A stretch of DNA of 64,000 nt, from the NCBI RefSeq assembly GCF_003334815.1, contig NZ_QOWO01000002.1, one strand, 5' to 3'. Below are positions 2,781 through 41,933 of the stretch, one piece after another (position 1 is the stretch's first letter; every line of letters begins with the position of its first letter). Position numbers and translations under genes: made by a program. The notes beneath the pieces are model-generated. The model was not told the origin of the DNA, searched no databases, and saw nothing but the letters and a program-made list of their open reading frames with translations. The stretch is from Escherichia coli. Its GTDB lineage: Bacteria > Pseudomonadota > Gammaproteobacteria > Enterobacterales > Enterobacteriaceae.

Positions 2781-5063
<2,283 letters not shown>

Positions 5064-5117: not shown

Positions 5118-5975
5118 TTAATGGTGGTCGTTTTCACGCAGGTAAATGACCCAGTATGTCAACCCAACCAACAAACCACCACCGATAATGTTGCCGATCG
5201 TAACCGGAATCAGGTTATCAGTGATGAAATTCATCACGGTCAGGTGAGAAAAATTTTCCGGTGCAGAACCGACTGCGGTCCAAAATTCCGGGGATGCGAA
5301 GTCGCGGATTACAATACCCATCGGGATCATAAACATGTTTGCGATACTGTGCTCAAAACCGCTGGCAACAAACATCGCGACCGGCAGCACCATAATGAAC
5401 GCTTTGTCCATCAGGCTGCGGCCAGAATAACTCATCCATACTGCCAGACATACCATCAGGTTTGCCAGGATACCAAGACAGACGGCCTCAATAAAAGTAT
5501 GGTGCACTTTGTGGTCGGCGGTTTGTAGGACGTTTAGTCCCCATTGACCATTTGCGGTCATATACTCGCCGGAAAGCCACATTAAAAGTACAAACAGCAG
5601 TGCGCCGACCAGGTTGCCAAAATAGACATTTAGCCAGTTTTTCGCCAACTGACCCCAGGTGATGCGCCCACTCGCCTTAGCAACAACAATCAACACGGTG
5701 GAAGTAAAGAGATCGGCTCCGCAGACAACACAAAGAATCAGCCCCAGAGAGAAGCAAATGCCGCCAACCAGTTTTGCCATGCCGAAGGGCATTGTGCCTG
5801 TGCCAGTGGTTGCTGTGATATAGAAGACGAATGCGATTGAGATGAAAACACCGGCGGTAATCGCCAGATAGAAAGTCTTAAGCGGATGTTTCGTTGCTTT
5901 ATAGACACCCGCCTCTTCGGCCACTTTGGCCATTGCAGCAGGAAGTAAAAGATCAAAAGGGTTGTCAGCTTTCAC
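5118..5975 (-). CDS. focA: formate channel FocA (FNT family)
   Basis: ORF-track frame trimmed to GTG start giving 285-aa FocA (VKADNPFDLLLPAAMAKVAEEAG…); 54 bp upstream of pflB. Confidence 0.92.
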   Translation of the reverse strand: MKADNPFDLLLPAAMAKVAEEAGVYKATKHPLKTFYLAITAGVFISIAFVFYITATTGTGTMPFGMAKLVGGICFSLGLILCVVCGADLFTSTVLIVVAKASGRITWGQLAKNWLNVYFGNLVGALLFVLLMWLSGEYMTANGQWGLNVLQTADHKVHHTFIEAVCLGILANLMVCLAVWMSYSGRSLMDKAFIMVLPVAMFVASGFEHSIANMFMIPMGIVIRDFASPEFWTAVGSAPENFSHLTVMNFITDNLIPVTIGNIIGGGLLVGLTYWVIYLRENDHH

Positions 5976-6035
5976 ACTAACTCTCTCTTTATTAAGTCGG
6001 CGACGAGATACTAACAAAGCATTATAGATGAGAAA

Positions 6036-6049
6036 TTGATATAGATCAT
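6036..6049. promoter_or_regulatory. FNR-like palindrome TTGAT-ATAG-ATCAT upstream of focA
   Basis: Near match to FNR consensus TTGAT-N4-ATCAA, about 60-75 bp upstream of the focA start in a 405-bp AT-rich region. Confidence 0.45.
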
Positions 6050-6306
6050 ATCTCGCCTGGCTTATAGGCCCGTAACTCGCATGGTTTTTATGCAAATACG
6101 GAGTAAATATTTGATTATCCAAATAAAAATAAATTTTAAAAATTAACAAATGAGTTGAATTTTTTCCGCATCCTCCGCTAAAACAGTTAATTAAAAGGGA
6201 GCATCAGGCGAATAAAGTAACAATATCGATCGTATTTATTAAATACAAATTACCGATATTTAACCTTATAATTACAATTATTTTATTAATGCAAATATAT
6301 GTAAAG

Positions 6307-6329
6307 CGGGGCATTAAAAAAACGCCCCG
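6307..6329 (-). terminator. hairpin downstream of ycaO (putative terminator)
   Basis: Stem CGGGGC/GCCCCG with A/T-rich loop; no clean U-tract. Confidence 0.4.
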
Positions 6330-6380
6330 TAATATAACTCAGACTAATCATTAAGCCTACATTGCGTAGGCTATTTGATT

Positions 6381-8141
6381 TTATTTTGCCCAGAATGCTG
6401 CTTTGGCGCGCTGCAGCTTTTCGTAGGCCTTCAACAACGACTGATGTGCAGCAAACGCGTGCAGATCGCTATCTACCGGTTGCAGGCCGTAAAACGCCGC
6501 TTCGCCGCTCATTGCCGCACTGGCGGCTTCTACGGCATCTGCGCCGTACATGCGAACAAACGCATTCAGATATTGCAGCGGCTGGCGATCTTCTTCCTGT
6601 GCCAGTAATAACAACGTTTGCAGGCAGCGATAATAGTTGGCGCGTTCCGGACTAAATACTGATGAGTTAAACTCCATCGTCCATTCGGTCCAGACCAGAG
6701 CCTGTTCCAGATCGCCACCAGCCAGCGCCAGCATGGCTTTTAATTCACCGATACGCAGGGTGTACCAACCGTTATCCGACCCGGTCGCCAGACCCAACAG
6801 CTCACGCACGCGGGTAAAGTCATCAAAACCTTCTTCATCCAGTTGCTCGATGAGGTTCAGGTAATCTTCTTTTTCCCACTCGCTGCCTGGTAGCGAAAGA
6901 ATCGTTTCACGTAAATGGCTGCCCATACTGTTATTCGCGAGCCACAGATCTTCAGCCGGATAAATATCGGACATGCCAGGCACGATAATACGGCAAGCAT
7001 AAACGCCCAGATGCTCGTAATCGGCAATATAAACTTCTTTATCTTCTTTGTTGAAGATAGCCATCAGTGTGGCGAACTCTTCTTCCGTGGTGCCGGAGAA
7101 ATTCCAGTCCACAAACGGATAATCGGCATCCTGCTTGAACAGGTCCCAGGAGATTAAACCGCTGGAATCGATAAAGTGCGTTTCGAGGTTGGTATGTTCA
7201 GCGACTTCTTCATCATCGAAGGTTGGCGGAGTAAACACATCCAAATCTTTCAGGCCACGACCTTGCAGCAGCTCGGTCACGGTACGTTCCAGTGCTACGC
7301 CAAAATCAGGATGCGCACCGAAAGAGGCAAAGCAGGTACCGTTAGCAGGATTGAACAGTACCACGCAAATCACCGGATACTGGCCGCCAAGCGAACCGTC
7401 ATAAGCGAAGATTGGGAAACCCTCCGCTTCCAGCGTTTCGATGGCTTCAACTACTGCTGGGTAACGCGCCAGCACGTCTGCCGGGATCTCTGGCAGGCTG
7501 ATGCTTTCAGCAATAATGCGGTTTTTCACGTAGCGTTCGAAAACTTCAGACAATCCCTGAACGCGTGCTTCGTTGCGGGTATTACCTGCGGACATACCGT
7601 TGGAGACGTACAGGTTACCAATGATATTCATCGGAATATAAACGGTCTGATTGTCGGACTGACGCGTAAACGGCAGGCCGCAAATACCACGATCTTCGTT
7701 ACCGGATTGTAGGTCAATCAGCATGCTGCCGGTCAGTTCATTCTCCGGATCATAAAACGCGCGCAGACGGTCATCGAGCAGCCCTTCTGGCACATCGTCA
7801 TTTTCGGTCAGTGGGAACCATTTTTCGTTGGGATAATGCACGAACGGACCGTTGGCGATGGTTTCGCCCAGCCAGAAGTCCGCAAAAAAGTAGTTGGTTG
7901 AGAGACGCTCGAAATATTCACCGAGTGCAGAAGCCAGCGCCGCTTTCTTGGTTGCGCCTTTACCGTTGGTAAAACACAGTGCGCACTCTTTGTCGCGAAT
8001 ATGTACAGACCAGACGTTAGGCACGGGATTCAGCCAGGAGGCCTCTTCAATCTGAAAGCCGAGGTCTGAAAGTTTTTGCTGGAAGCGAGCGATGGAATCT
8101 TCCAGAGCGGCATCTTTGCCGGGGATAAATGTTTGCGTCAT
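6381..8141 (-). CDS. ycaO: YcaO-domain protein (ribosomal protein S12 methylthiolation accessory factor)
   Basis: ORF-track 597 aa trimmed to ATG giving 586 aa (MTQTFIPGKDAALEDSIARFQQ…); recognised as E. coli YcaO. Confidence 0.9.
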   Translation of the reverse strand: MTQTFIPGKDAALEDSIARFQQKLSDLGFQIEEASWLNPVPNVWSVHIRDKECALCFTNGKGATKKAALASALGEYFERLSTNYFFADFWLGETIANGPFVHYPNEKWFPLTENDDVPEGLLDDRLRAFYDPENELTGSMLIDLQSGNEDRGICGLPFTRQSDNQTVYIPMNIIGNLYVSNGMSAGNTRNEARVQGLSEVFERYVKNRIIAESISLPEIPADVLARYPAVVEAIETLEAEGFPIFAYDGSLGGQYPVICVVLFNPANGTCFASFGAHPDFGVALERTVTELLQGRGLKDLDVFTPPTFDDEEVAEHTNLETHFIDSSGLISWDLFKQDADYPFVDWNFSGTTEEEFATLMAIFNKEDKEVYIADYEHLGVYACRIIVPGMSDIYPAEDLWLANNSMGSHLRETILSLPGSEWEKEDYLNLIEQLDEEGFDDFTRVRELLGLATGSDNGWYTLRIGELKAMLALAGGDLEQALVWTEWTMEFNSSVFSPERANYYRCLQTLLLLAQEEDRQPLQYLNAFVRMYGADAVEAASAAMSGEAAFYGLQPVDSDLHAFAAHQSLLKAYEKLQRAKAAFWAK

Positions 8142-38841: not shown

Positions 38842-39930
38842 TTAGAACTGGTAAACGATACCCACAGCAACGGTGTCGTCTGAACCTACGCCCAGTTTGT
38901 TGTCAGAATCGATCTGGTTGATGATGTAGTCAACATAGGTGGACATGTTTTTGTTGAAGTAGTAGGTTGCGCCCACTTCAAAGTAGTTCACCAGATCAAC
39001 ATCACCGATACCTTCTACGTCTTTCGCTTTAGATTTGGTGTAAGCGATGGACGGACGCAGACCGAAATCGAACTGGTATTGCGCAACTAACAGAACGTCT
39101 TGCGTTTTGTTGGCGAAGCCGCTGGTGTTTGTAAATTTATTAGTGATCGGCGTAGCGTTACGGGTTTCACCGTAGTTCGCTGCCAGGTAGATGTTGTTCG
39201 CGTCGTACTTCAGACCAGTAGCCCACTGTTCAGCTTTTTTACCGTTGCCAAGAGGTTGAGCTTCTTGCAGGTTGGTACGGTCAGCTGCACCATAAGCACC
39301 AACGATACCAAAGCCTTCGTATTCGTAGCTGATAGAACCGCCAACACCGTCGCCGTTAGAACGGCGTGCAGTGTCACGCTCGTTTTTACCCAGGTACTGA
39401 ACAGCGAAGTTCAGGCCATCAACCAGACCAAAGAAGTTGGAGTTACGATAGGTAGCAACGCCGCCAACACGACCAACGAAGAAGTCATCGCTGTATGCAG
39501 TATCACCACCAAATTCTGGCAGCATATCGGTGTAACCCAGTGCATCATAAACCACACCGTAGTTACGGCCGTAATCGAAAGAACCAACGTCAGCGTATTT
39601 AAGACCCGCGAATGCCAGACGCGTTTTGTTACCAGTTTGAGCGTCAGCGCCTTCAGAGTTGTTACCCTGGAAGTTATATTCCCACTGACCATAACCGGTC
39701 AGATCGGAATTGATTTGAGTTTCCCCTTTAAAACCAAGACGGGCATAGGTCATGTCGCCATTGCCACCGTAACTGTTTTCACCGTTACCCTTGGAAAAAT
39801 AATGCAGACCAACAGCTTTACCGTACAGATCTACTTTGTTGCCATCTTTGTTATAGATTTCTGCAGCGTTTGCAGTACCTGCTACTAACAGAGCAGGGAC
39901 GATCACTGCCAGAATATTGCGCTTCATCAT
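38842..39930 (-). CDS. ompF: outer membrane porin F
   Basis: 362-aa ORF, signal peptide [23 protein letters not shown]-terminal …VGIVYQF. Confidence 0.97.
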
Positions 39931-40080
39931 TATTTATTACCCTCATGGTTTTTTTTATGACACCTGCCACTGCCGTCAATAAGTTCTGTCAATAAAAATT
40001 TACGGAACTATTGATGAGAGTTTGGTGTCTTTATGTGTCTGCAGGCATCTTTCCATTCAAACTAACGTTTCGCTACCGTG

Positions 40081-40140
40081 AAAGTGCTACAAAGATAAAG
40101 ATTTGGTTTCAAAAAGAAAAAATATGTAACCAAAAGTAAA
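40081..40140 (-). promoter_or_regulatory. OmpR binding sites F1-F3 of the ompF promoter
   Basis: Reverse complement reads TTTACTTTTGGTTACATATT / TTTTCTTTTTGAAACCAAAT / CTTTATCTTTGTAGCACTTT, the canonical three tandem 20-bp OmpR boxes; implies ompF TSS near 40040 and a roughly 110-nt leader. Confidence 0.8.
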
Positions 40141-40355
40141 ATTTAAGGAACTTTGTGAACACCGTCATATTTCCATAGAGACGTGATGATATTTACAGCA
40201 ATTTTAATCTATTTATATGATTTCCTTATATTTAAATTAACTAAACGGAAATTTTGTTTCTGATGGAAACTTTATCGACCTGGCACAAAATCTTCTTTCA
40301 GACATCCAGAATGCCAAAAAATAGTATGAAAATTGTGCTATTAGCTAAGAAAAAA

Positions 40356-40388
40356 CTAATCCGCAATAAGAATGCGGATTAGTTTTTG
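40356..40388. terminator. strong hairpin with flanking A- and T-runs inside the ompF upstream region
   Basis: AAAAA-CTAATCCGCA-ATAAGAA-TGCGGATTAG-TTTTT. Confidence 0.55.
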
Positions 40389-40491
40389 CGCGTAAATGTT
40401 GCAATGTAATATTCCGTAACAGGATGATCGTTATGGCGGGGTTGCAAATAGATTGCTTGACTTAACAAACAGATAACTTGACAGAAAAGAT

Positions 40492-40519
40492 AAAAAAAGA
40501 GCCAGCGGGCGCTGGCTCT
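40492..40519 (-). terminator. rho-independent terminator after asnS
   Basis: AGAGCCAGC-GGGC-GCTGGCTCT with T-run on the minus strand (plus-strand A-run 40492-40498). Confidence 0.8.
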
Positions 40520-40532
40520 TGAAGACGCTAAA

Positions 40533-41933
40533 TTAGAAGCTGGCGTTACGCGGAGTACGTGGGAACGGAATCACATCACGTACGTTTTGCACGCCAGTTA
40601 CGTAAGCAATCAGACGTTCAAAACCAAGACCGAAACCTGAATGCGGAACAGTACCGTAGCGACGCAGATCGCGATACCACCAGTAATCTTCTTTATTCAG
40701 GCCCATTTCCAGCATACGCTCGTCCAGCACGTCCAGACGTTCTTCACGCTGGGAGCCACCAATGATCTCACCGATGCCCGGAGCCAGAACGTCCATAGCC
40801 GCAACGGTTTTACCGTCTTCGTTAAGGCGCATATAGAACGCTTTAATATCTTTCGGATAGTTTTTAACCACTACCGGTGCTTTAAAGTGTTCTTCCGCCA
40901 GATAACGCTCATGCTCAGAAGAGAGATCGACTCCCCAGTAAACCGGGTTTTCAAACTTCCTGCCGCAGTTTTCGAGAATGGTCACTGCGTCGGTATAATC
41001 CACCTGCGCAAAATCGGCTTCAATGAAGCGTTCCAGACGTGAAACGGCATCTTTATCTACGCGTTCAGCGAAGAATTTCATGTCGTCAGCGCGTTCTTCG
41101 AGAACCGCTTTGAAGACATATTTCAGCATGGCTTCAGCCAGACCCGCAATATCGTTCAGGTTAGCAAACGCCACTTCCGGCTCCAGCATCCAGAATTCCG
41201 CCAGGTGACGGCTGGTGTTGGAGTTTTCAGCACGGAAAGTCGGGCCGAAGGTATAAATTTTGGACAATGCGCAAGCGTAGGTTTCGCCGTTCAACTGGCC
41301 AGATACGGTCAGGAAAGACTCTTTACCAAAGAAGTCTTTGTCGAAATCCACTTTGCCCTGATCGTTACGCGGCAGGTTTTCCAGATCCAGCGTAGAAACG
41401 CGGAACATTTCGCCTGCACCTTCGGTATCAGATGCGGTAATCAGTGGCGTTGAAACCCAGAAGAATCCCTGCTCGTTAAAGAAGCGATGCAGCGCCTGCG
41501 CCAGCGTATGGCGAACGCGCGCGACGGCACCAATCAGGTTTGTGCGCGGACGCAGGTGAGCGACTTCACGCAGATACTCAATGCTGTGGCGTTTTGCCGC
41601 CATCGGGTAAGTGTCTGGATCTTCAACCCAACCAGCAACTTCAACCTTGCTGGCCTGAATTTCAAATTGTTGCCCCTGGCCCGGCGACGCCACGACTTTA
41701 CCCGTCACAATGACCGAGCAGCCGGTGGTCAGACGCAGGACGTCTTCATTGTAATTGGGCAGAGAATTATTGATGACAGCCTGTACAGGATCAAAGCAGG
41801 AACCGTCATAAACGGCGAGGAAGGAGATGCCAGCTTTTGAATCTCGGCGGGTACGTACCCATCCGCGCACGGTGACTTCGCTGTCAACGGCTACACGGCC
41901 CTGGAGTACGTCGGCTACAGGCACAACGCTCAT
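40533..41933 (-). CDS. asnS: asparaginyl-tRNA synthetase
   Basis: ORF-track 481 aa trimmed to ATG at 41933 giving 466 aa ([45 protein letters not shown]…). Confidence 0.96.

Follow-up and report, generated by a model that had tools for sequence, protein, structure and literature searches.

Three genes of the window, by which we mean the whole 64-kb stretch of Escherichia coli DNA analysed here, frame the region of interest. The genes pflB, focA and ycaO, all read on the minus strand, were placed from the RefSeq annotation of an E. coli region of identical sequence, which leaves a spacer of 405 bp between the GTG start codon of focA and the stop codon of ycaO (Table 1). The 551 bases around this spacer match the E. 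coli chromosome with 95-100% identity in 5424 of 5426 complete genomes. Positions in the window equal the MG1655 (U00096.2) coordinate minus 947,714, an offset that was checked against the focA and ycaO coordinates in Kim 2012 and against the published FNR site.

The spacer proved to be the 405-bp AT-rich region upstream of focA that the original prediction had described. It contains 30.9% GC, falling to 23.4% in its core (6100-6300), compared with 50.5% for the window, and only 0.3% of the 405-bp segments of the window are as AT-rich. Besides the focA spacer, 405-bp segments with 36% GC or less occur only at approximately 39811-40570 and at 50297-51065. The idea that the spacer is H-NS-silenced foreign DNA was rejected because both the spacer and its blocks show synteny and conservation in the enterobacterial species that were sampled. 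For this sample, 80 focA loci were fetched from enterobacterial species and 21 genera were aligned; counts given below out of 77 refer to the focA loci with enough upstream sequence. From position 6072 down to the GTG, the 21-genus alignment is almost invariant.

The GTG codon called as the focA start from the sequence is also that of the RefSeq CDS, and is the start in all 77 enterobacterial loci. The focA leader, of either 26 or 37 nt, carries a GA-rich ribosome-binding site, which together with the GTG, both -10 boxes and the FNR half-sites is near-invariant in the 77 species. Insertions or deletions of 1-2 nt occur between the promoter and the GTG in 16 of the 77 loci, and the alignment upstream of the GTG has no third-position variation. 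On these two grounds an in-frame start further upstream is ruled out, and a 343-codon ORF that reaches 6149 was rejected as coding upstream of the GTG. Small ORFs in the spacer, which are AT-rich and lie within indel-bearing stretches, were likewise rejected.

Table 1. Genes and regulatory features in and around the focA-ycaO spacer (window positions)
Feature	Position	Strand	Basis and remarks
pflB	2781-5063	minus	RefSeq annotation of identical locus
focA	5118-5975	minus	RefSeq annotation of identical locus; GTG start 5975-5973
focA-ycaO intergenic regulatory region	5976-6380	minus	Annotation, composition, conserved blocks in 21-genus alignment
Ribosome-binding site AAAGAGAGAG (5990-5981) and GTG start (5975-5973) of focA	5973-5990	minus	RefSeq CDS, conservation
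-10 hexamer TAGTAT of promoter P6	6008-6013	minus	Start G 6001; FNR centre at -41.5
-10 hexamer TATAAT of overlapping upstream promoter (P6A type)	6021-6026	minus	Start A 6012; FNR centre at -30.5
FNR binding site TTGATATAGATCAT (ATGATCTATATCAA on the focA strand)	6036-6049 (centre 6042.5)		Matrix, Myers 2013, conservation
Predicted IHF-type site, core AATCAAATATTTA (6116-6104) and A/T tract TTTTAAAATTTATTTTTAT	6104-6143	minus	Pattern scan, conservation
ArcA box AGTTAATTAA (exact WGTTAATTAW) in conserved block TTTTAATTAAC	6185-6194	plus	Pattern scan, conservation
ArcA-P direct-repeat cluster TGTAAT/GGTTAA/GGTAAT, 11-bp phase	6235-6288	minus	Park 2013, Federowicz 2014, alignment
Promoter-like TTTACA-17-AATAAT, E. 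coli-specific	6277-6305	minus	Consensus scan, Shimada 2014
ycaO terminator hairpin CGGGGCGUU-UUUUU-AAUGCCCCG, tail CUUUACAUAUAUUU	6307-6329	minus	Folding, covariation
Invariant G(C/T)TATATTAC by the terminator stem, with GTAGGC 17 bp upstream	6331-6360	minus	60-sequence alignment
Hairpin AGCCUAC-GCAAU-GUAGGCU just past the ycaO stop	6353-6371	minus	dG -10.2 kcal/mol, z -4.0
ycaO	6381-8141	minus	RefSeq annotation of identical locus; stop 6383-6381

The FNR site and the core promoters

The palindrome TTGAT-ATAG-ATCAT lies at 6036-6049, where the original prediction placed it, and agrees with nine of the ten specified bases of the FNR consensus TTGATN4ATCAA. As a motif alone it is not beyond chance in 64 kb: three matches with at most one mismatch were found in the window against 2.84 expected, a rate that amounts by arithmetic to approximately 0.018 expected matches in a given 405 bp. 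Leaving this site out, we derived a position weight matrix from the remaining 62 ChIP-bound sites in Table S6 of Myers 2013. With this matrix, TTGATATAGATCAT scored 16.7 bits, within the range of ChIP-bound sites (11.8-21.2 bits), and ranked first in the window, where the next best match scored 12.3; a scan of the spacer found no other FNR site above 4 bits.

Published genome-scale data place FNR at the same position. Our 14-mer is listed at 953,750 (window 6036) as a predicted site beneath an FNR ChIP-seq peak whose centre is at 953,741-953,746 (window 6027-6032), and focA-pflB is given as a directly FNR-activated operon with its site at -40.5 (Myers 2013, PMC3688515). A 25-fold Fnr ChIP region at focA-pflB, with an effect scored as activation, is reported in Federowicz 2014. 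The pattern ATGAT-N4-ATCAA is kept in 74 of 77 enterobacterial species; across genera the half-sites are invariant and the central 4-bp spacer varies, and the distance from the FNR site to the -10 element is constant in the 77 loci while the length of the leader varies by 1-2 nt. That the palindrome arose fortuitously in AT-rich DNA, and FNR acts elsewhere or only indirectly, would suit the chance-level frequency of near-consensus matches in the window, but is extremely improbable in view of the top matrix score, the contrast between half-sites and spacer, the listing under a ChIP-seq peak and the position at -41.5 from a mapped start (that of the 26-nt Salmonella leader).

Two further FNR-related candidates were discarded. 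A second FNR site at TTGAT (6111-6115) scores less than 2 bits and is the ATCAA of the exact IHF core described below, and the proposal that P7 starts close to 6077, with FNR at -40.5, was dropped because its candidate half-site belongs to that core. Elsewhere in the window, the second-best matrix match is GTGATGGTAATCAA at 50014-50027; a 14-mer of this sequence at 996,289 lies inside ssuE and is not ChIP-bound (Myers 2013, PMC3688515). If the two are the same site, the offset there is 1,439 bp away from the value at focA, and an indel relative to MG1655 would have to lie somewhere between the two loci.

Downstream of the FNR site, TAGTAT lies at -12 to -7 of position 6001 and a perfect TATAAT at -14 to -9 of position 6012. 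A single focA start was mapped by sequencing in aerobic E. coli, at 953,726, which is the A at window 6012 and gives a leader of 37 nt; the flanking sequence printed for it agrees with the window (Kim 2012). For Salmonella 4/74, the start-site list, also obtained by sequencing, holds two focA starts, the primary one giving a leader of 37 nt and the secondary one a leader of 26 nt. Between the GTG and approximately -97, Salmonella and E. coli share the same spacing and differ at one base, position 6035 beside the FNR site, so the Salmonella starts equate to window 6012 and 6001; for E. coli, we infer the start at 6001 by transfer from the 26-nt Salmonella leader. We take the starts at 6001 and 6012 to correspond to P6 and P6A of Kaiser & Sawers 1997.

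The P6 -10 stretch, TATAATGCTTTGTTAGTAT, is identical in 76 of 77 species. Transcription from the second promoter begins 11 bp upstream of the P6 start, and the FNR site overlaps the -35 region of this second promoter. Without oxygen, the sigma-70 ChIP-seq signal at window 5981-5983 is 7-fold higher (2026 against 285; Myers 2013), and a cloned fragment beginning at window 6086 kept anaerobically induced expression (PMC4358894). P6 has the features of a class II FNR promoter (an inverted repeat centred near -41.5 of 6001, and published in vivo FNR occupancy and activation), and both P6 and the P6A-type promoter have those of a sigma-70 promoter, namely a -10 element with A2 and T6, a start site and sigma-70 occupancy. 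The near-consensus FNR palindrome and the FNR-dependent anaerobic promoter of the original prediction are thus both borne out, by an identical 14-mer in the published list, a ChIP peak at the site, membership of the directly activated class (Myers 2013) and starts just downstream at 6012 and 6001.

Within focA itself, a start site at 953,131 (window 5417; Kim 2012) and an anaerobic sigma-70 peak at 952,872 (window ~5158, near the focA 3′ end; Myers 2013) are relevant to whether 5′ ends inside the gene arise from pfl promoters or from processing.

Sites for IHF and ArcA further upstream

The original prediction also named IHF and ArcA as regulators upstream of focA. For IHF, AATCAAATATTTA is the only exact match in the spacer to the core WATCAANNNNTTR, and it supports this involvement at the level of sequence; cores with one mismatch occur in the window at a rate of 0.4 per 405 bp. 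Of 77 species, 55 keep the exact core, and the A/T tract on its 5′ side (6143-6124) is conserved, so that the predicted site combines the core with an A/T-rich tract 5′ of it, as expected of an IHF site. An IHF footprint is reportedly located at about -102 to -134 from P6. Between the IHF core and the FNR site, a block TAAAAACCA at 6090-6082 is conserved across genera. A pattern scan for NarL heptamers found no exact TACYYMT in the spacer.

For ArcA, the involvement is supported by two ChIP studies. A four-repeat predicted ArcA-P site at 953,949-954,002, which corresponds to the repeat cluster of Table 1, lies under an ArcA ChIP peak at 953,962-7 (Park 2013), and ArcA motif matches were reported both in this cluster and at 953,895-953,909, covering the region of the single ArcA box (Federowicz 2014). 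The repeats TGTAAT, GGTTAA and GGTAAT are conserved in 21 genera, and, with two or more TGTTA-like repeats spaced in 11-bp phase beneath the ArcA ChIP peak, the cluster has the composition of an ArcA-P operator. The two studies conflict on the direction of the effect on focA-pflB, which is repression in Federowicz 2014 and activation in Park 2013 and older work.

A further line of evidence on the upstream half of the spacer comes from experimental evolution in the mouse gut, where four independent adaptive IS1 or IS5 insertions raised anaerobic focA expression (Lourenco 2016). They lie at window positions 6149, 6176, 6178 and 6187, in the stretch that separates the IHF site from the ArcA cluster. 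The focA-ycaO spacer is a recurrent target of adaptive IS insertions in this environment, and the gain in expression fits poorly with a purely activating upstream module.

The 3′ end of ycaO and a second sigma-70 peak

A hairpin had been noted after ycaO, and it is well supported by folding: the minus-strand RNA 6329-6307 pairs CGGGGCGUU with AAUGCCCCG at a dG of -15.7 kcal/mol (z = -4.3), and across 60 enterobacterial sequences 93% of the helix is paired, with compensatory AU/CG/GC exchanges. This stable, GC-rich stem downstream of the ycaO stop is the ycaO terminator, with a U-tract that is degenerate in E. coli. In most of the 60 orthologous sequences the hairpin is followed by a tail of T6-8, as in a classical terminator. 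The E. coli element carries its T-run in the loop, is followed by the degenerate tail CUUUACAU with fewer than five U in the eight positions after the stem, and went unlisted in a terminator scan; it may leak. Most other genera combine a short loop with the T6-8 tail, and this comparison suggests that the Escherichia lineage has remodelled the element.

Several other observations concern this end of the spacer. In E. coli KFu015, from river water in Japan, an IS1 (L082:715-1482) sits inside the terminator hairpin at window 6305-6313, flanked by a 9-bp duplication of the target, AGCGGGGCA. Among the aligned genera, E. coli and Citrobacter alone have the 5′ arm of the second hairpin, just past the ycaO stop. 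On the plus strand, opposite to focA and ycaO, AGCCTACATTGCGTAGGCT followed by ATTTGATTTT at window 6354-6372 scores as terminator-like.

Beside the terminator stem, G(C/T)TATATTAC is invariant and its 17-bp spacing to GTAGGC is free of indels, a count that refers to the 60 sequences aligned; a motif search for TATATTAC found none at 13 loci with full upstream sequence. The pairing of GTAGGC with a downstream GUCUG or GUCUAC, which is 70% paired and rich in G-U pairs, suggests that the ycaO 3′ UTR forms an RNA hairpin here. The segment can be read either as a -10/-35-like pair or as the linker and stem of a 3′-UTR hairpin (6360-6339). At two Klebsiella/Raoultella loci (L015 and L016, the two aligned of L015-L019 and L025), the ycaO 3′ UTR is shorter and without the GTAGGC hairpin, and a -10-like hexamer, TATGAT or TATTTA, directly precedes the terminator stem.

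The terminator also coincides with a second sigma-70 ChIP-seq peak, at 954,032-954,040 (window 6318-6326), which rises from 329 to 1955 anaerobically and equals the peak at P6 in both strength and anaerobic induction; ycaO mRNA is 3.8-fold lower under anaerobic conditions (Myers 2013). A promoter formed by TATATT (6336-6331) and TAGGCT 17 bp upstream, with starts at approximately 6324 inside the 5′ arm of the stem and transcripts that would lack this arm and read on towards focA, would account for a peak of this height and induction at a time when ycaO mRNA falls, and would give a reason for the invariant hexamer block and its fixed spacing. RpoD holoenzyme binds the focA/ycaO spacer in vitro (Shimada 2014), which is compatible with such a promoter; however, its -35-like hexamer is poor, the G-U pairs of the GTAGGC hairpin point to selection on the RNA, all ArcA sites would fall downstream of the start, and ChIP-seq peak positions in DNA of 23% GC may be displaced. 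Moreover, neither the aerobic E. coli list of Kim 2012 nor the Salmonella list contains a start in this upstream part of the spacer. On balance we regard this promoter, whether it be the classical P7 or an undescribed start, as possible but somewhat unlikely.

A more specific version, in which TATATT is a terminator-embedded and anaerobically active promoter with transcripts that start inside the stem, is less likely still. If it were true, these transcripts would lack the 5′ arm of the stem and so would escape the terminator that stops ycaO transcripts, running for approximately 350 nt through the ArcA, IHF and FNR region into focA, and the second sigma-70 peak would be explained. Should the TATATT promoter simply be the classical P7, it would not be new.

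The second upstream promoter could instead be TTTACA-17-AATAAT (6305-6277), with a start near 6270, a proposal that we consider doubtful. It comes closer to the sigma-70 consensus (10 of 12 bases) than any other sequence in the spacer, but one such match was found where 2.5 are expected by chance, and the element is not conserved outside E. coli. Shimada 2014 assigned it to an RpoD SELEX peak and named it an RpoD 'constitutive promoter'; against this, the ArcA repeats would cover its -10 element and start, it lies approximately 50 bp from the centre of the sigma-70 peak, and no start was mapped there in aerobic E. coli (Kim 2012). The element is placed approximately 1.2 kb from the pflB ATG. 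This distance would fit the 1.2-kb span of the pfl promoters. The classical P7 may be either this element or the TATATT element.

A third reading takes the hairpin, the AU-rich linker and the terminator after ycaO together as a 3′-UTR-derived small RNA. The architecture is conserved, and Rfam returned a weak match to DapZ, itself a 3′-UTR small RNA, yet at 25 bits (E = 0.12) this is far under the gathering threshold of 56 and was treated as chance. Since, in addition, a literature search turned up no such small RNA, the 13 loci without TATATTAC include Klebsiella, Raoultella and Pseudocitrobacter, and the U-tail is degenerate in E. coli, this reading is very improbable.

Discussion

We are highly confident that the locus is the known promoter and regulatory region of E. 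coli focA-pflB, and that this identification is the best explanation of the whole, including the FNR site and the two promoters. All that the original prediction described was found at the positions it gave, and its interpretation is supported. The region has been described before, and its core adds nothing different. It represents a textbook case of layered anaerobic control, by FNR, ArcA and IHF, of a formate-making enzyme, and for the purposes of annotation it sets regulatory DNA apart from coding calls.

The evidence at the core is consistent with a model where a single FNR site serves two starts. At a distance of -41.5, the class II position, FNR activates by direct contact with RNA polymerase. 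In the absence of oxygen, FNR would bind at 6036-6049 and switch initiation to 6001, and the bound protein would at the same time occlude the -35 region of the 6012 promoter, the start of which is used in aerobic cultures. Further upstream, IHF could bend the AT-rich DNA such that ArcA-P bound approximately 230-290 bp upstream reaches the core promoter, and this bending might also let an upstream promoter (P7) communicate with it.

The closest comparison is with the E. coli focA-pflB (pfl) region itself and its promoters P6, P6A and P7, as described by Sawers and co-workers, Myers 2013 and Park 2013. It is the same locus with the same sequence, and genome-scale data in the literature agree with the positions of the FNR site, the ArcA sites, the start sites and the GTG start; the sigma-70 peak over the ycaO terminator is not explained by the literature consulted. 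The ycaO element can likewise be set beside Rho-independent terminators, with which it shares a GC-rich stem of 9 bp after the stop codon and, in its orthologues, the T6-8 tail; the E. coli version differs in the placing of its T-run in the loop and in its tail. Lastly, P6 resembles the class II FNR promoters narG, dmsA and yfiD, with which it has in common a TTGAT-N4-ATCAA-type site at -41.5, a weak -35 element and an anaerobic rise in sigma-70 occupancy. Unlike these promoters, the same FNR site at focA also lies at -30.5 from a second promoter with a near-consensus TATAAT, and one bound dimer could therefore activate one start and occlude the other.
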